The notes below the pieces were generated by a model. That model was not told the origin of the DNA and made no database searches. It saw only the letters and a list, made by a program, of their open reading frames with translations. The position numbers and the translations under genes were made by a program. A DNA stretch of 64,000 nt, taken from IMG/VR virus record IMGVR_UViG_3300042691_019786; one strand, given 5' to 3'. Source of the DNA: a virus. Positions 7,713 to 14,876 of the stretch are shown one piece after another (positions within the stretch are counted from its first letter, which is position 1; each line of letters begins with the position of its first letter).

Positions 7713-8426
7713 TTAAGCTAATTTCAATGGTCTTAAATATTCTCTTAGGAACGCATTAACTGGTCCACCAATTTTTTCTTCCCATTGTTTATAATTCTTA
7801 GCATTTTTCTCTTCCAATTGAGATAAAGCTTTCTCTGATGGCTTGTGTCTACTCCATGGTAACGTTTCTGGTACAAAGTCTGGATATAACGTTCTGTTAA
7901 ACACCCTTTCATCAACTAAGAAAACAAACGCTGTTAATTGGTCACCCAAATCTGGTTCATGAAACTCTTGCAACAACACACCAGCTTCACGCATAGTTTG
8001 CATGTGTCTATTCAAAGTTCCCAATCTTTCTGGGTTGTTGTTTGTTGTACCACCGTTAAGAATAATAAATGTTTTATCTTTATCAGCCCATTTGTTATAT
8101 ATTTGTTGATGTGGTTTTAACCCTTCAACAGTTCTACCATAATCAACGACAGCGTGACCAAATTGGATTCCTTGTTGAATCGGGGACATGTTATACGGAA
8201 CCAACCCATACATTCTACGTTCTAAGTACATTTCACTCTTACGTGGTGTTGAATCAGCTTTAACTTTACATAACCCTAAACGTCTGTAAAACTCTTGCAC
8301 ATCAATTTTTTCTTCATAATACGATTCTTCGTAAAATGCCATAGATGTGTCCCATGATGAAATGTCTAATATTCTAACATTTGCATCTAAACACCATTCA
8401 TATCCAGTTTTTAATATCTTTTCCAT
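7713..8426 (-). CDS. Pth2-like peptidyl-tRNA hydrolase domain protein
   Basis: MYGLV..MSPIQQGIQFGHA...KTFIIL...FHEPDLGDQLTA. Confidence 0.6.
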   Translation of the reverse strand: MEKILKTGYEWCLDANVRILDISSWDTSMAFYEESYYEEKIDVQEFYRRLGLCKVKADSTPRKSEMYLERRMYGLVPYNMSPIQQGIQFGHAVVDYGRTVEGLKPHQQIYNKWADKDKTFIILNGGTTNNNPERLGTLNRHMQTMREAGVLLQEFHEPDLGDQLTAFVFLVDERVFNRTLYPDFVPETLPWSRHKPSEKALSQLEEKNAKNYKQWEEKIGGPVNAFLREYLRPLKLA

Positions 8427-9733
8427 TAATTTCCTATTTCAATTAAATGTGATACAGTACATTGTGCTGAGTTATATACTATATATTCGTTATTTCTTAG
8501 GTCAGCGCCACCTTTTGCAAACACACTATCAAATCCTTCATTATCTAACACTTTCTTAGATAACTTATAACAGCTTGAGTCATGGTGCAATATTTCTTTT
8601 TGTTTACCCAAATGCACATCAAACAATGCCAAAAACGCTTTGTTATCACCACCATGAGCCCAATAAGAACCTCTTAACGATGTGTAACCAATAGATTTTT
8701 GTGCTTTGTCAGCAAAGTAGATACCATCACCAAACATTGACCCAGTATGTACCGCACCAGATGGTCTGATAAGTAACCCAGTTTGTAAAATGTTAAACCA
8801 GTTCTCATTTCTTGACCCATGCCAGTATAGTCTACGTTTCTTAACTTCAACTTTATCCATGTGTTTATCAAATATTTTTTGTGTTTTGTTGTTAACAACC
8901 TTGAACACACGTTTCATTTGATTCACATTTGGACCCATCAATTTTTTGATAAGTTCAAGCGTTTCAGTATCATTTTCAACCTCAATAGATAATCCCATTT
9001 GGTCTAAGATAGTAACTTCAGATACTTCTTCTTTTTTACCTTCAGCTTCAGCCTCAGCAGCTTTCTTAGCAGCTTCTCTTTGTTGTTTAATCAACTCAAC
9101 TTGACCAGCCATTGTATCCAACGCTGATTGTTCGTTATCAATCAATCTTTGTGCGTTAGTCAAACTAACATCATTACTAATCTCTCTAAACAAATGGTCT
9201 TTTACGTTATCCATTCTTCTAGGGATAATTGTATAAAGTTTCAATAACATATCATTGATATGTTTGATATCTACACCAATAGCAATCAATCCACTAATGT
9301 TAGTGATAATCTCTTGTGCAGCGGTAACTTGTTGTTCCGATACAGCTTCTTGCGTTACCTTATAGTTACGTTGGATTGATTTGTTGGCAAATGACATCAA
9401 TTCATCAACCAATTTACGCACAATCTCATCTTTGATATTTGCAACTTTATTATCAACTGGTTTTGATTCATCCACAACTGGTTCAGCCAACAAATCAGTT
9501 ACATCTGTATAACCTTTTGTTTTTGATAGTTTTTGTTTCAACACACTATCCCATTTTGAACTAGGTTTATATTCAGTTGTTAAAGACTTGCCAACACGAC
9601 CATATTCACATTTGATACGGCCATCTGATAATTCTTCCATAATATAAACTTTATTACTTTGGCTGGTCAAACCATTATCAACTGATACATGTATCAGTTT
9701 TGCGTATCTTAAACCGTTCTCTTTTACTATCAT
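8426..9733 (-). CDS. WGR-domain PARP-like ADP-ribosyltransferase
   Basis: NKVY...YGRVG (WGR); LYTIIP regulatory domain; catalytic H-Y-E triad in WHGSR, GIYFA..KSIGY, NNEYIVY. Confidence 0.9.
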   Translation of the reverse strand: MIVKENGLRYAKLIHVSVDNGLTSQSNKVYIMEELSDGRIKCEYGRVGKSLTTEYKPSSKWDSVLKQKLSKTKGYTDVTDLLAEPVVDESKPVDNKVANIKDEIVRKLVDELMSFANKSIQRNYKVTQEAVSEQQVTAAQEIITNISGLIAIGVDIKHINDMLLKLYTIIPRRMDNVKDHLFREISNDVSLTNAQRLIDNEQSALDTMAGQVELIKQQREAAKKAAEAEAEGKKEEVSEVTILDQMGLSIEVENDTETLELIKKLMGPNVNQMKRVFKVVNNKTQKIFDKHMDKVEVKKRRLYWHGSRNENWFNILQTGLLIRPSGAVHTGSMFGDGIYFADKAQKSIGYTSLRGSYWAHGGDNKAFLALFDVHLGKQKEILHHDSSCYKLSKKVLDNEGFDSVFAKGGADLRNNEYIVYNSAQCTVSHLIEIGN

Positions 9734-9762
9734 ACTTCAATATTTTATACAAATTTACTAAT

Positions 9763-10254
9763 TTAAAAATTATCTTCCAAATGTTTTGGTATATAATCAG
9801 CAATATTTCTTTTCCACCAATTTTTAAACTTACGTTTTATTCTTTCTTTAAAAAAATAGAATCGCATATCTAAATTAGCAACTTTTTCACCCAACCATGT
9901 GTAATCTGTGAAACCATCTTCATCATATTCATACTCATTACATGGATATGGTCTACCACGTTCATCAATATACTGCCAATAACCATCTTCTTCTTTGGTT
10001 ATTTTATCAGTATATTCATCACCTTCGTATTCAACCCATCGCCAATCTTTACTTTCAATACCTTCTGGTTCATCTGTTGGTAATCCTTCTTGTGGTAAAC
10101 CATAATGCCAGTTGCATGAACAACCAATATCATCTGGTGTACCAATACAATCATCACAGATATATGGGTTATCATTATTGGCATAACCTGGCATGTATAA
10201 CCATACAGCTACATTACCACAATCACATTTCTTTTTACCACGTTCTAGTATCAT
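9763..10254 (-). CDS. Cys-rich hypothetical protein
   Basis: CDCG...CDDC...GCSC...GRPYPC. Confidence 0.55.
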   Translation of the reverse strand: MILERGKKKCDCGNVAVWLYMPGYANNDNPYICDDCIGTPDDIGCSCNWHYGLPQEGLPTDEPEGIESKDWRWVEYEGDEYTDKITKEEDGYWQYIDERGRPYPCNEYEYDEDGFTDYTWLGEKVANLDMRFYFFKERIKRKFKNWWKRNIADYIPKHLEDNF

Positions 10255-10435
10255 CTACAAACAAATTTTTGTTGTTATCAATGAATTTAACAAATAATTG
10301 TTGCATTTCGAAGGGTAATGGGAAACCACCCATGTAGACAACTCCCATTACCACTTCTAATTCTTGTCCAGCTTTAAGGTCCATACCTTTAGCGACAGTT
10401 ACATCTTGTTTTAATCTATAAACAGTTCCGTTCAT
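10235..10435 (-). CDS. hypothetical protein
   Basis: packed ORF. Confidence 0.55.
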   Translation of the reverse strand: MNGTVYRLKQDVTVAKGMDLKAGQELEVVMGVVYMGGFPLPFEMQQLFVKFIDNNKNLFVDDTRTW

Positions 10436-10436
10436 A

Positions 10437-11273
10437 TTAAGCCATTTTAAAGAACATTTCTCTTACTTTAGATGAAATGTATTTATTTATTTCTTTTGGT
10501 TCCAATTGGTTCTCTACCATTGTATCCATTTCTTCTTTGATAACGTCATTAACAACCCATCTGATAACGTCACCCATTTTCTTAACATCAATAGGTTCGT
10601 TGTTTGGGAAAATGTTTTCTAACGCTTGGTTAAAACGACTTTCAGATACTGCATAATCAACAAATTCTTTAATAGAATTTAATTTCTCAACATCAACAGC
10701 TGCAAGTGTTTTTACTTTAGAACTAGAGTGGCGTTCGCCCTTTACCTTGAAACGATGAACAACACCTTTAAAATCAGCAGTCCATACAATACCTTCACCA
10801 ATTCCAGAGTAACCAAAAGCTTTTGCTACTGGACATTCTTCTTCAACTTTGATAGTCAACTCAGACAACTGATTTTGTACCAATTGTGGCATGTTAAAAT
10901 CAATATCGATTGAATATGTAGGGTAATCGTCAATATTGTAAATATTCTGCTCTGGTGCTCTTAAATAAGAGTAATCAACCCAATATGCTGGATTAGCTTT
11001 TAACTCTTCTTCAGTTTCAGTATGTGGTGTGATTTTAACACCAAAGATAAAGAAAGATTTAGGTAAATTGCAAACACCAACACCTTTTTGAATATTACCA
11101 CCAGCCCATTCACCGTAGATTGTTACAGTATTTTTATCACCGTCTAAACCATTGTTTAACAACACAGCATTAATCATAGCTTCAAAAATTTCTTTATGTG
11201 AATGCACAAAAAATGCAAATCCAGCGTTATCAGATGTTTTAATTTCTCTAATATTTTTTATTTTCTTTTCCAT
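10437..11273 (-). CDS. Rnl2-family RNA ligase, C-terminal half
   Basis: DNAGFAFF; motifs III (IYGEWAG), IIIa (FFIFGV), IV (GEGIVW) and V (FKVKG); lacks motif I. Confidence 0.8.
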   Translation of the reverse strand: MEKKIKNIREIKTSDNAGFAFFVHSHKEIFEAMINAVLLNNGLDGDKNTVTIYGEWAGGNIQKGVGVCNLPKSFFIFGVKITPHTETEEELKANPAYWVDYSYLRAPEQNIYNIDDYPTYSIDIDFNMPQLVQNQLSELTIKVEEECPVAKAFGYSGIGEGIVWTADFKGVVHRFKVKGERHSSSKVKTLAAVDVEKLNSIKEFVDYAVSESRFNQALENIFPNNEPIDVKKMGDVIRWVVNDVIKEEMDTMVENQLEPKEINKYISSKVREMFFKMA

Positions 11274-11281
11274 TTTTATGT

Positions 11282-11542
11282 TTATATTTTTTTATTTTTT
11301 TCAAACCATTCATCTAAAGTGAATACGTATTCATCTACATTTTTGACGTAATCTTCTTCAAATATAGTTTTTTCCACTATTTGCCATACATATACGGATG
11401 TTATACCTAGTTCATCTAAAATCATAGGATTCTCTAAAACATCAAGTATGAATTTCTCTTTAGATTCATATTCAAATGGTATATTCCACTCCCAACACTC
11501 TGGTTCGGAACAATATGTATAATCAAAAACTAACTTTTCCAT
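11282..11542 (-). CDS. hypothetical protein inserted between the ligase halves
   Basis: ORF with a TACATTTG box at 11556-11563. Confidence 0.55.
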   Translation of the reverse strand: MEKLVFDYTYCSEPECWEWNIPFEYESKEKFILDVLENPMILDELGITSVYVWQIVEKTIFEEDYVKNVDEYVFTLDEWFEKNKKI

Positions 11543-11625
11543 TTTTTATTTTTTACAAATGTACGACATTTTTTTAACTTTTCCAAATTTTATAGATATT
11601 TATTAAAAAACGATAAACCAGCATT

Positions 11626-12456
11626 ATGAAAAAACAAAATTACCATTATGTTTATAGAATTACTAATAAACTAAATAAAAAACATTACTATGGTTCTAGA
11701 ACATCAAAAATAGAACCTAAATATGATTTAGGTGTGAGTTATTTTAGTTCTAGCTCTGACAAAGAATTTATTAACGACCAAAAATTAAATACACACAATT
11801 ACAAATATGTTATAGTTAGAGTTTTTAATTCTAGAAATGAAGCTTTATTATTTGAGTCGCATTTACATGCTAAATTCAATGTTGCTAAAAATGATAAATT
11901 TTATAATAAATCAAACGTAACAACAACTGGTTTTATTTACGGTTTTCTTGGTAAAAAACACAACCCAGAATCACGCAAAAATGCAATAACAAAAAAAGTT
12001 AATACTATGAAAACAACTATTAACAATAATGGTCAAAATCTATATAATTTAGCCGCTAGAAAAGGTGATGAGACAAAAAGAAACACTATCACATCTGATG
12101 GGTTAAATATCCATCAATTAGCAGCTAAAAAATATAAAGAACGTTTGGACGTTATTAAAGATGGTGAAACAATGTCTACTAGAGACAAATTAAAACAACC
12201 TAAAAAAGATAAAACAAATTACCAAAAAGAGGCTGAAATTATCCACATATATAACAACAACAATGAATTAATTTATGTAGTAACAATAAATTTAAGAAAA
12301 TTTTGTAAGGAACATAAATTACCATATACTGAATTATATAATTCAAAAAGAAACAACATCAAACTTTATGAAAATATTACTGATAAACGAATTATTACTA
12401 TATTAACCAATAAAGATTTTTACAAATATAAAAATTGGTATGCTATAAAACAATAA
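11626..12456 (+). CDS. GIY-YIG (Seg-like) homing endonuclease
   Basis: YVYRITN...HYYGSR...YFSSS...FYNKS; antisense within the split ligase locus. Confidence 0.85.
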   Translation: MKKQNYHYVYRITNKLNKKHYYGSRTSKIEPKYDLGVSYFSSSSDKEFINDQKLNTHNYKYVIVRVFNSRNEALLFESHLHAKFNVAKNDKFYNKSNVTTTGFIYGFLGKKHNPESRKNAITKKVNTMKTTINNNGQNLYNLAARKGDETKRNTITSDGLNIHQLAAKKYKERLDVIKDGETMSTRDKLKQPKKDKTNYQKEAEIIHIYNNNNELIYVVTINLRKFCKEHKLPYTELYNSKRNNIKLYENITDKRIITILTNKDFYKYKNWYAIKQ

Positions 12457-12814
12457 TCTCACCTATTTTATAATCATTAATTACTTTACCATTAATAATC
12501 GCATTTTCATCAAATAATTGTTTTGAACCATCTTCAAACTCAATTTCTATTAATTTTGAAGGTGCTGGTGTGATAATATTCTCACGAGATTGAGCCCACA
12601 TACCGCTTAGTGCGTTAAAAGACACACCAGCATTGGTACCATGTATTTTTACAGTACCTTTGAATGTGATAGTTGGTTTTGGTAATGTTGGGTCATAAAT
12701 CGCCTCACCATTTTCATCCAAACCAACAAAGTTGAAATGTCTGTTGACATTAGAAACAACTGTTCTAAATTGTTCAATAGACGGGAACTTGATTAATCGT
12801 TTATTTTTATTCAT
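12443..12814 (-). CDS. Rnl2-family RNA ligase, N-terminal half with a 40-aa C-terminal tag
   Basis: KFPSIEQF; motif I KIHGTNAGV; QSRENIITP followed by non-ligase sequence. Confidence 0.8.
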   Translation of the reverse strand: MNKNKRLIKFPSIEQFRTVVSNVNRHFNFVGLDENGEAIYDPTLPKPTITFKGTVKIHGTNAGVSFNALSGMWAQSRENIITPAPSKLIEIEFEDGSKQLFDENAIINGKVINDYKIGEIIVL

Positions 12815-12829
12815 GTTATTCTTTTTTTT

Positions 12830-13288
12830 TTAAAAATTGTAACTAATACTTGGTGTTACGTAATCGACACCATCCCAGTTTGTGTAAGACACGCCATATC
12901 CTATCTTATTATGTGTATATGATACACCTAATCCGTATTCAATAAAATTATGTTTAGTATCAATGTAACTACCGACACCCAATATGATATTACCATATAC
13001 TTTACCAATAGGGAATGATGGTGCTACTTTAACTTCATAGAAATAGTTTCTAATATCATCATTCTTAAAAATACCATCTAAACTACCTCTACCTAACGCT
13101 AACCCAAAAGCTACATCGTTACACACAACACCAAATTCTAATGAACTATATGAACCAGTGTTAAAATCTGAATTGTTTGATAATGAAACACCCCATGATA
13201 CATACTTTCCAACATTACATTTTGTTGAATCTTGTGCGAAAGTGCTAACCGCCCACATACACATTACTAATAATACTAATTTTCTCAT
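12830..13288 (-). CDS. putative outer-membrane beta-barrel protein
   Basis: signal peptide, alternating beta-strand pattern, C-terminal SYNF. Confidence 0.55.
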   Translation of the reverse strand: MRKLVLLVMCMWAVSTFAQDSTKCNVGKYVSWGVSLSNNSDFNTGSYSSLEFGVVCNDVAFGLALGRGSLDGIFKNDDIRNYFYEVKVAPSFPIGKVYGNIILGVGSYIDTKHNFIEYGLGVSYTHNKIGYGVSYTNWDGVDYVTPSISYNF

Positions 13289-13481
13289 TTTTTATCTACT
13301 TTATTTTTAACATACTTTACAGCTTCTGGACCATGTTCAACAATTACTTGTTTTACACTATCAATTACCGTGTCTTCTACTCTATTTTTTAATTTATTTA
13401 CTTTATAAACAACAAATAATATGGCAAATGCTATTACTACCAATAAAATACCCAATGCTACTACTAATACTGCTACCATAC

Positions 13482-14876
13482 TTATACTGTTAAACCTATT
13501 GCTGCATTTTGTATTTCTATACACTCGTCAAGTGAGTTAGCCTCTGATTTGTCATCTCTAAAGTGTTTAAACGCTGGATATAACAATGAGTATGCACCAG
13601 TGTGGTCAAAAGATAACCCAGAACACTTAACTTCGATGATAGTACCTAACAAATTGTCTTGATTCTCTGTAATTTCAGCCATCAAAGACTCTGTTAACCC
13701 TTGTGGTCTTGTTTTTAATTTACCACATGATGTCTCAGCATTGAATGAACTGATTACATTTTCGTTTTTGGTACCTTTTGTACCATAGTTAAACCCAGTG
13801 ATAACCAAATCCAACGTTAATTCCAACTTCATTTTGATTTGATGTGTTGGTTTACCATCTTTCCAACTACCATCATATGCTTTAAGAATAGTACCTTCTT
13901 CACCTCTACCTAATATTTCTTGGAAGTGTTTAATCGCATCTTCATATGTTTCAACAATTACTGATTCAACAACTGAAATCATTGTTGCATTAGCCACAGA
14001 TACATAACTAGCAGCAAATTCAAGTCTTTCATTATATGGTGTTTTAGAACCTTTCTCGAAATATTCATCAATTGATATAGTATCCCAAACTGTGTAACGA
14101 ATTTTATCTAACGCTTCTTGTAATTCACCGTGTTTTTCTTCAAAAGCAGCAATTTTCTTTTCATTTTCTTTTTCAGAACGACTTTCTTTCTTACCACAAA
14201 TATCAATCAATGATGCAATAATACCGTTAGATTCATAACGTGGAATCCCATCCATTGTTAATTCACCATTTAACACACAATCTTCAAAATTACTTAGTTC
14301 TGAAAGAAATTTAGCACCAGTAAGAATAGTTGCTTCACCTTGTCGGCTTTCTAGTTCAACTTCACCATTACGAATAACTGCGTTACAATAACGACCATCC
14401 ATTTTAACTTGTGAATAACCTCTTCCACCTTTCTCAAAAATTTTACGTGCTTTCTTTTCGTCAAATGATACAGCACCCATATATGGCGTATCTTCGATTA
14501 AGTCTTTGAAAACTTTATTGATAAAAGTTGTACCCATACCAATCTTACAATCTTTATCGATAATACGTTCAATAATGTAAGCATCGTCAGCTGATACGTT
14601 TTCTAACCAAATAGTTAGTTTATCAATAGCTAGTTGACCAGTGAAGTCACGGTTTGCGATTTGCATCAACATACCCAACGCTTGTTCTAACGTCCAATCA
14701 ACTTGGTTGTGAGTGTATTCTGGTACACGTTTAATATAAAACTTAACTCGTTTAGAGTTAGCCATATATAACACTCTTCTCAATAACTCATTGTCTGAGT
14801 ATTTTTTAAGGATTTCAATCTTAGCGTTGTTACCACTAGTTGATGCAATCTCGTCAAAAATCTGTTTAATAGTCAT
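13482..14876 (-). CDS. ATP-dependent DNA ligase
   Basis: KMDGRY (motif I), LNGEL, EEGTILK, IKMK; C-terminal OB fold. Confidence 0.92.
   Translation of the reverse strand: MTIKQIFDEIASTSGNNAKIEILKKYSDNELLRRVLYMANSKRVKFYIKRVPEYTHNQVDWTLEQALGMLMQIANRDFTGQLAIDKLTIWLENVSADDAYIIERIIDKDCKIGMGTTFINKVFKDLIEDTPYMGAVSFDEKKARKIFEKGGRGYSQVKMDGRYCNAVIRNGEVELESRQGEATILTGAKFLSELSNFEDCVLNGELTMDGIPRYESNGIIASLIDICGKKESRSEKENEKKIAAFEEKHGELQEALDKIRYTVWDTISIDEYFEKGSKTPYNERLEFAASYVSVANATMISVVESVIVETYEDAIKHFQEILGRGEEGTILKAYDGSWKDGKPTHQIKMKLELTLDLVITGFNYGTKGTKNENVISSFNAETSCGKLKTRPQGLTESLMAEITENQDNLLGTIIEVKCSGLSFDHTGAYSLLYPAFKHFRDDKSEANSLDECIEIQNAAIGLTV

Follow-up and report, generated by a model that had tools for sequence, protein, structure and literature searches.

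To our knowledge, the only experimentally established case of an endonuclease that both breaks a gene and supplies the peptide for its reassembly is NrdA of Aeromonas phage Aeh1. The tails of Aeh1 NrdA arose with the insertion of mobE and are essential for activity; they are not required for heterodimer formation, and Crona et al. (2011) speculated that they are remnants of a degenerate split intein (PMC3045599). In split inteins proper, the halves associate through oppositely charged strands, negative in the N part and positive in the C part (PMC2677866; PMC11766414). These charges lie on two long antiparallel strands (Dassa et al. 2009, PMC2677866), and the halves assemble by what is termed 'capture and collapse' (PMC11766414, summarising Shah et al. 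2013). Such split inteins interrupt the so-called fractured genes, among whose eight listed host enzymes there is no RNA ligase (PMC2677866). Here we describe a split gene for a predicted RNA ligase in a phage, at positions 10,437 to 12,814 of IMG/VR virus record IMGVR_UViG_3300042691_019786. The window, as we call the whole stretch that was analysed, is 64,000 nucleotides (nt) of AT-rich phage DNA with about 30% G+C. On balance, we think it probable that a mobile cassette both splits this ligase and supplies an intein-shaped, non-splicing clasp, made of an acidic tail on the upstream fragment and a basic tag on the downstream one.

The locus is composed as follows:

10437-11273, minus strand: C half of the RNA ligase, 278 amino acids, with motifs III-V.
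10437..11231, minus strand: C fragment proper, from DNAGF onward, with motifs III, IIIa, IV and V and the Rnl2-type C-terminal domain.
11232-12564, no strand assigned: the whole mobile cassette, 1333 base pairs (bp), replacing GAAAAA (Glu-Lys) of the intact gene.
11232..11273, minus strand: cassette-borne basic tag of 14 amino acids (MEKKIKNIREIKTS) at the N terminus of the C half.
11282-11542, minus strand: ORF86, an acidic open reading frame of 86 amino acids in the intergenic region of the cassette.
11556-11563, minus strand: promoter-like TAnnTTTG box TACATTTG, in the cassette, upstream of ORF86 and the C half.
11626-12456, plus strand: free-standing gene for a predicted GIY-YIG homing endonuclease, 276 amino acids, antisense to the ligase (phrog_314).
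12443-12814, minus strand: N half of the RNA ligase, 123 amino acids (open reading frame listing and phrog_548).
12446..12565, minus strand: cassette-borne acidic tail of 40 amino acids, N-half residues 84-123, a predicted Hint-half-like β module.
12566..12814, minus strand: N fragment proper, residues 1-83, with the N-terminal region, motif I (Lys56 in KIHGTN) and motif Ia (SRENII).

Against the phrog_548 (RNA ligase) profile, the N half covers positions 4-66 and the C half positions 65-330 (E=1e-44), so the two halves adjoin and nothing is lost between them. More than 150 phage genes annotated as 'RNA ligase 2' match the C half from residue 14 or 15 onward, with 40-46% identity, and the N half matches intact phage ligases only as far as residue 82 or 83. 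Uninterrupted close relatives read ENIITP-EK-DNAGFAFF across the joint: in the split gene (ITP|EK|DNAGF) two residues are swapped out, and neither the 40-residue tail nor the 14-residue tag has a counterpart in the 150+ intact phage ligases. The first-pass annotation, made from the letters of the window, had reported a ligase with motif I in 12443..12814 and motifs III-V in 10437..11273, with an antisense GIY-YIG gene, a small open reading frame and a box at 11556-11563 between the halves. All of these elements lie where it had put them. Its break at NIITP / DNAGFAFF is likewise borne out by the intact relatives, in which EK alone is replaced.

The nearest solved structure is that of T4 Rnl2 (Protein Data Bank (PDB) entry 2HVQ, E=1e-7), found with a profile of the intact relatives; a PDB search with a single intact ligase sequence gives no match. 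In this profile alignment K56 of the N half falls on K35 of T4 Rnl2, and the match covers 2HVQ residues 36-299, including YGEW, FIFG, EGIVW and KVKGEKH. The split point corresponds to ILP|AE|DFFGY of T4 Rnl2, within the nucleotidyltransferase domain. Motif I, KIHGTN with K56, is invariant in 23-29 homologues and has the Rnl2-type form KxHGxN. Motifs I and Ia are on one fragment, while motifs III-V and the C-terminal domain are on the other. By its motifs, the split gene is confirmed as that of an Rnl2-type ATP-dependent RNA ligase (PF09414, PHROG 548), with predicted activity. The C half is devoid of the motif I lysine and the N half of all the rest; as both are under purifying selection, they must work together.

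The borders of the cassette emerge from the comparison of filled and empty sites. In the near-isogenic pair of loci L040 (split) and L015 (intact), which are 95-98% identical on both flanks, homology halts at the first tail codon and restarts at the first codon after the tag (GAT), as seen both by blastn and in the DNA alignment. The blastn breakpoints between the window and the empty sites of L003 and L006 give the same borders, 11232-12564. The empty site in the L003 and L015 alleles reads ...ATCACACCAGAAAAAGATAACGCTGG.... A single cassette of 1.1-1.3 kb, in place of six bases, holds the tail and the tag as well as the endonuclease gene and the intergenic control region.

Our sample consisted of 34 related viral contigs, supplemented by loci found through protein look-ups. 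The same three-gene layout and the same 14-nt overlap are shared by at least seven diverged phage contigs, all split after residue 83; given this recurrence, the arrangement is not due to chance. On the ligase tree the split alleles are dispersed among intact ones, and such a patchy spread indicates that the cassette is mobile, as homing predicts. Together, the filled and empty alleles and their scattered distribution agree with the initial proposal that a homing endonuclease caused the split. One locus, L001, has most of the endonuclease gene deleted and retains both halves, the tail and the tag. With the tail profile, matches in six-frame translations of the window and of all loci are limited to the split-83 alleles and to L041/L042; no second gene split by the same kind of cassette was detected in the window.

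The endonuclease gene overlaps the 3' end of the N half with its own 3' end, by 14 nt. Its product matches the homing endonuclease family phrog_314 (E=6.6e-16); the Pfam matches to GIY-YIG, SegE and NUMOD3 are weak, and the first two of them are below cut-off. The residues Y-V-Y...Y-Y-G-S-R are visible at its N terminus. In five other split loci the gene is intact and under purifying selection, with a ratio of non-synonymous to synonymous polymorphism (pN/pS) of 0.14-0.54.

The TAnnTTTG box also lies in the cassette. Each of the seven split lineages has it, 14-25 nt upstream of the ATG of the C half, together with an A-rich leader. In form the box agrees with the -7 promoter consensus of Bacteroidota. 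As the motif is common in the AT-rich window (70 occurrences on the minus strand), only its positional conservation counts as evidence for promoter function. No terminator-like site was seen.

ORF86 has no Pfam or PHROG match. It is present only in the window phage, plus a C-terminal remnant in L001; the other lineages have 50-110 nt in its place. It is a lineage-specific passenger, not needed for the split arrangement. We considered it as a third piece of an intein, since the sum of 40, 86 and 14 residues approaches the size of a mini-intein, and rejected it: it lies in another frame, has neither His nor TxxH, matches no family and is absent from five of the six other split lineages examined (the remnant in L001 being the exception). 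Its start region (ATAAAAAATGGAAAAG) nearly repeats the start region of the C half (ATAAAAATGGAAAAG; window 11271-11290), which suggests that ORF86 entered through duplication of the start of the tag.

In seven diverged phages both tail and tag evolve under purifying selection, the L039 tail excepted. The tail consensus, composed of a strand, FEDG, a second strand, ING and G-D/E-x-I-x-L, is kept in 17-23 diverged N halves and holds down to 57% overall identity; the tag is nearly invariant across the seven lineages. By codon analysis of the split lineages, pN/pS is 0.17-0.32 in the tail and, at pS 0.3-0.7, 0-0.3 in the tag, beside 0.18-0.55 in the ligase core and 0.18-0.39 in the N fragment proper. 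Their charges are opposite throughout. In 7/7 lineages the tail is acidic, with a net charge of -4 to -6 and an isoelectric point (pI) of 4.1-4.4, and the tag basic, with a net charge of +3 or +4 and a pI of 9.8-10.2.

A relative of the tail occurs outside the ligase. P0073, a stand-alone open reading frame of 43 amino acids (L041:46-535, also in L042), is about 43% identical to the whole tail. A stop codon lies upstream of it, and an Endonuclease VII gene overlaps it by 14 nt in another frame; the locus L041 itself is a 723-bp contig of low coverage. P0073 may be another endonuclease-associated copy of the tail module. Antisense or out-of-frame endonuclease genes within phage inteins have been documented (bioRxiv 10.1101/2025.01.02.630785), and the P0073/Endonuclease VII pair looks like such a context. 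No longer protein containing the tail, be it a fused form or one with another host, was found, which is weak evidence. Separately, tblastn matches between the N half and intact ligases ran on to residues 101-117, in the frame of the C half. The idea of the tail as a diverged duplicate of the ligase segment that follows the break was dropped, with an identity of about 4/20, the level of chance.

The AlphaFold (AF2) model of the tail alone has a mean predicted local distance difference test score (pLDDT) of 87; within the model of the N half the tail stands at about 82 and is the most confident part. Its predicted elements are two hairpins, the second of them small, and a helical turn; the final nine residues are left unpaired. 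We aligned the 41-residue tail model exhaustively with 48,161 PDB representatives using VIA, and 30 chains reached Z>=2. Inteins, Hedgehog domains and bacterial intein-like (BIL) domains make up 21 of the 30, including ranks 1-13, where Cat, gp41-1, PolII, MchDnaB-1, Npu DnaE, DnaX, KlbA and NrdJ-1 are found. In these matches all 41 residues are aligned, with Z between 2.2 and 4.5 and a root-mean-square deviation of 1.6-2.6 Å. The shared target region comprises residues 45-100 approximately, from block B to the end of the N fragment. A Tudor domain appears at rank 28, with Z 2.0. The model of the whole N half, used as a negative control, retrieves unrelated mixed folds over residues 6-86. A shape search of the ESM Atlas returned phage proteins in clusters with Hint, Intein_splicing or intein-endonuclease domains, at template modelling (TM) scores of 0.74-0.82 over 41 residues. 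The feature search of the same atlas with the tail was uninformative, giving only RNA-ligase clusters with scores <0.9; Foldseek, run with the models of the N half and of the tail, found nothing in the PDB at E<=0.001.

As a side observation, the closest tail shape in the ESM Atlas (row 1, TM 0.82) belongs to viral proteins of 194 amino acids, 40% of which contain the Rnl1-type domain PF09511. Rnl1-type ligases may also carry intein-like or tail-like extensions.

A true split intein occurs in the same ligase in sister phages. In L028-L030 (for instance L029:5998-8335) the gene is fractured at motif I, 24 residues upstream of the break described here, in the order: ligase N terminus through motif I (KIHG), N-terminal intein fragment (IntN), endonuclease gene, C-terminal intein fragment (IntC). 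The L029 intein has Cys1 and TEDH in its IntN, and its IntC of 34 amino acids ends in VHN, followed by Ser. The endonuclease is of the DUF559/MTES_1575 type (Vsr-like), and the N fragment of this fractured ligase is represented in at least 15 clusters. With net charges of -12 for IntN and +3 for IntC, this genuine intein has the same polarity as tail and tag. In hhalign comparisons the tail aligns with the first pseudo-repeat of the local ligase intein (residues 2-27), with a score of about 24.5 (P ~3e-5) that was equalled by none of 420 shuffles in four runs. From shape and sequence together, we lean towards a Hint ancestry of the tail.

The chemistry of an intein is absent. The residue that opens the cassette varies among lineages (Ala, Ser, Thr, Met or Tyr); there is no conserved Cys or Ser after ITP, and the position-1 nucleophile of inteins (Cys, Ser or Thr) is not kept. 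The tail of the window contains no histidine, and F-D-E-N stands in place of the TxxH of block B. The tag ends in IKTS, followed by Asp, and the junction is without Asn in 7/7 lineages; the terminal His-Asn is missing. Tail and tag add up to 54 amino acids, compared with about 130 in a complete Hint fold. Without the position-1 nucleophile, TxxH and terminal Asn, and with these 54 residues only, splicing is excluded. The first-pass annotation had called the system non-splicing and had listed Cys1, TxxH and the terminal HN as missing, and the tail, the tag and the lineage alignments agree with it on each count. Its comparison of the two peptides with Hint domains, made by eye, fared unevenly. 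The likeness of the tail to the end of IntN stands in predicted shape, with the 21 of 30 PDB matches given above. The sequence alignment behind it does not: the tail aligned with the end of the local IntN scores 10.5-11.3 in hhalign, which is not significant, as 8 of 120 and 11 of 100 column shuffles equal it. The supposed likeness of the tag to the start of IntC (MxKIxxI) does not rise above composition, since 37% of shuffled tags and 4 of 89 real N termini from the window phage reproduce it.

We propose the following sequence of events. A site-specific mobile cassette built around a free-standing GIY-YIG gene has inserted into a surface loop between motif Ia and DNAGF. On the upstream side, 120 nt of it are fused in frame to the ligase, adding the acidic 40-residue, β-rich tail, with a predicted shape like one Hint pseudo-repeat. 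The promoter-like box and start codon of the cassette would drive the downstream fragment, on which another 42 nt encode the basic 14-residue tag. Polypeptides of 123 and 278 amino acids would then be made separately, with neither RNA nor protein spliced. Tail and tag would pair electrostatically, probably as adjacent antiparallel strands, like in the 'capture' step of split inteins; this pairing would hold motif I beside motifs III-V and so restore the active site without a covalent bond. What we infer from the comparisons above is that tail and tag bind, that the ligase is active and that the tail descends from an intein. As the most economical origin, illegitimate recombination would have taken the endonuclease gene out of a split-intein ('fractured gene') locus, along with only the endonuclease-proximal flanks of the intein. 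More specifically, the cassette may be an evolutionary end-point that keeps two pieces of a split intein, from IntN its acidic second half and from IntC its basic first strand, as a capture-only half-Hint, a clasp that makes fragmentation harmless; we hold this version tentatively, a little short of favouring it.

Several points weigh against the proposal. The structural likeness is weak, coming from a predicted model of 41 residues with low Z (<=4.5). No Hint-clan family of Pfam matches the tail at E<=10, and there is no intein among the matches of the tail profile in 1.84 billion protein representatives. These matches are its own family, P0073 and repeat proteins of Y.V.FEDG units (Tudor/DUF7141); the strongest outside the family are the Tudor/SH3-like FEDG units, together with the Tudor domain of KDM4A, whose hybrid Tudor domain is also what a PDB sequence search with the tail profile finds (E=3e-7). 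The sequence match of the tail is to the start of the intein, whereas its structural superposition is on the end. The Hint fold is pseudo-two-fold symmetric, a statement made for gp41-1 (bioRxiv 10.1101/546465); by virtue of this symmetry, a tail that is one Hint half-unit could match the first repeat in sequence and the second in structure, which reconciles the two and falls short of proof. The likeness of the tag to IntC is, judging from its K/I/E-rich sequence, compositional. The tail of L039 is shortened and fast-evolving, with pN/pS of about 1.2. The contact of tail with tag is put forward by analogy with split inteins and Aeh1. Moreover, as the Aeh1 tails are not needed for heterodimer formation, a role other than that of a mutual clasp stays a live rival.

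The repeat proteins mentioned above deserve a description of their own. P0068-P0078 are proteins of 340-810 amino acids built from 3-7 tandem units of about 60 amino acids, each centred on Y.V.FEDG. They score as Tudor_2/3/5, DUF7141 and DUF2442, and some of them end in a Cys-rich motif.

The sequence matches would suit a tail that is a generic small SH3/Tudor-like β-hairpin module without intein ancestry, its Hint likeness being a convergence on a hairpin-plus-'GD.V' motif. The profile match to the hybrid Tudor domain of KDM4A, the FEDG repeat proteins that score as Tudor_2/3/5 or DUF7141, the lack of inteins among the 1.84 billion representatives and the uninformative Foldseek result all speak for it. 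However, the hidden Markov model (HMM) matches to FEDG units span only tail positions 3-29 or so, and in the structural search 21 Hint domains, aligned over the full 41 residues, come ahead of Tudor. The ESM Atlas neighbours of the tail are intein-bearing proteins. In addition, a real split intein exists in the same gene of sister phages, and the module flanks the endonuclease gene in the manner of IntN and IntC. We consider a generic module unlikely and keep to a Hint half-unit as the source of the tail.

A second alternative leaves ancestry aside: tail and tag would be needed, though not to clasp each other. They might stabilise their own fragment (in folding, in solubility or against proteolysis), repair the loop or the active site, or act at another assembly step. 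The Aeh1 precedent favours this, for the NrdA tails are essential for activity and for the dimerisation of heterodimers, not for heterodimer formation (PMC3045599). The tail is also predicted to fold confidently by itself, has a stand-alone homologue of 43 amino acids in P0073 and is divergent in L039, where the tag is retained. Set against these are the opposite charges of tail and tag, conserved in 7/7 lineages, and the fact that the two always co-occur and move together. The last nine tail residues, furthermore, have high strand propensity and yet are unpaired in the isolated model, as if a partner strand were missing. Roles of this sort are, in our estimate, rather improbable, and we retain the mutual clasp.

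The ligase could also be inactive, with its halves, tail and tag as decaying remnants or functionless read-through; a split within the nucleotidyltransferase domain is normally disruptive, and RNA ligase is an accessory gene. Yet both halves are intact and keep all catalytic motifs in at least seven lineages, at pS 0.4-0.8 and pN/pS 0.2-0.5; the tail consensus is conserved at the distances given above; and L001 held on to halves, tail and tag after it lost the endonuclease gene. Decay is very unlikely. Finally, removal of the interruption at the RNA level (group I/II intron, trans-splicing) or by non-canonical protein splicing has hardly any chance of being correct, given that no Rfam group I or II intron matches 9500-14000 at E<=10, that the endonuclease gene is antisense, that tail and tag evolve as protein with pN/pS well below 1, that the C half possesses a conserved start and a promoter-like box of its own, and that 54 residues lacking the position-1 nucleophile, TxxH and terminal Asn are too few for a Hint active site.

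The ligase gene is a hotspot of invasion in the relatives of the window phage. Many alleles are intact; others are interrupted near C-half residue 100 or residue 156. A second split site is found at motif IV (GFS | IGEGIVW) in L002:7262-9387 and L010:6001-8288. The cassette there holds a different, endonuclease-like gene of 335 amino acids in sense orientation, and has its own tail of 56 and tag of 30 amino acids, both rich in β-strand-like segments. L002 holds both cassettes, and its ligase is consequently in three pieces. The third split, near C-half residue 100, occurs in L017:6001-7977 and L018, with a sense-oriented endonuclease-like gene and an N piece with almost no tail.

The split ligase of the window is flanked by a gene for a poly(ADP-ribose) polymerase (PARP) catalytic-domain protein (PF00644, E=1e-26; window 8426-9733) and by an ATP-dependent DNA ligase gene (phrog_114, E=3e-107; window 13482-14876). 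The gene order, PARP protein, split RNA ligase and DNA ligase, is kept in relatives. In L037/L038:1944-4485 the neighbouring ATP-dependent DNA ligase seems split too, into 243 and 282 amino acids, by a gene for a NUMOD3-repeat endonuclease of 303 amino acids; a Cas12f1/TnpB-like gene is placed directly upstream.

If the proposal is true, a parasitic element can drop protein splicing and keep fragment association alone, which would explain why some endonuclease-split genes remain functional. The tail and tag would then be a compact natural pair of 40+14 residues for non-splicing heterodimerisation, usable as a split-protein association tag. Should the capture-only version hold, it would link split inteins, both mechanistically and historically, to the tail-mediated reassembly of Aeh1 NrdA. 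For annotation there is a warning: adjacent 'hypothetical protein' and RNA ligase genes in phages may be one working enzyme.

Limited literature searches brought up no account of such a split RNA ligase, of a truncated split-intein remnant that lacks catalysis and acts as an assembly module, or of a structural link from an assembly tail to the Hint fold. The enzyme itself is alignable with T4 RNA ligase 2 (2HVQ/1S68) from motif I through the C-terminal domain. T4 RNA ligase 2 is a single polypeptide, in contrast to the two pieces found here, and the ligase of the window has about 20 extra N-terminal residues (motif I Lys at 56 compared with 35).

In naturally split inteins such as gp41-1 and Npu DnaE, the 'capture' segment, acidic and at first disordered, is the latter half of IntN, and it is on this half that the tail model superposes. 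The tag is basic like IntC, and the first contact we propose is likewise electrostatic. In contrast to these inteins, the window system has neither the pre-folded first half of IntN nor the C-terminal two thirds of IntC, and there is no collapse into a catalytic Hint domain.

The fractured genes (Dassa et al. 2009, PMC2677866), whose endonucleases are GIY-YIG or Vsr-like, have the same order as our locus: fragment 1 with its extension, endonuclease gene, extension with fragment 2. They too are phage genes of DNA or RNA metabolism from aquatic metagenomes, and in them likewise the N part is acidic, the C part basic, and the two meet at the position of the endonuclease. The extensions differ: 54 amino acids in the window compared with about 130, and no Cys1, block B TxxH, blocks F and G or terminal Asn. 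In the absence of these catalytic blocks trans-splicing is impossible, and the product stays in two pieces.

In Aeh1, nrdA-a is separated from nrdA-b by mobE (Friedrich 2007; Crona et al. 2011), and there likewise a free-standing endonuclease gene cuts within the catalytic domain. In both phages the fragments are translated separately, with no splicing, and carry oppositely charged, insertion-derived tails, C-terminal on fragment 1 and N-terminal on fragment 2, that are absent from intact homologues. The genes are different, NrdA with an HNH endonuclease there and an Rnl2-type RNA ligase with an antisense GIY-YIG gene here. The polarity of the charges is reversed, the acidic member in the window being the tail and the basic one the tag, an arrangement shared with split inteins. 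Function was proven experimentally for Aeh1, whereas the window system is known from sequence and predicted models. The tail of the window, on the other hand, is a conserved module with a predicted fold of Hint-like shape, and the comparison of filled with empty alleles in near-isogenic phages proves tail and tag to be cassette-borne; the cassette has reached many lineages, while Aeh1 is a single case.

The Aeh1 tails and the fractured genes are the closest relatives of the system described here, which is real, conserved and mobile. To them it adds the proof, at the level of populations, that a mobile cassette spreading among phages contains both the tail and the tag as integral parts. It also adds evidence for the tail as a selected module, predicted to fold autonomously, and a structural link from this predicted tail to the Hint fold, in a gene that hosts a true split intein in sister phages.

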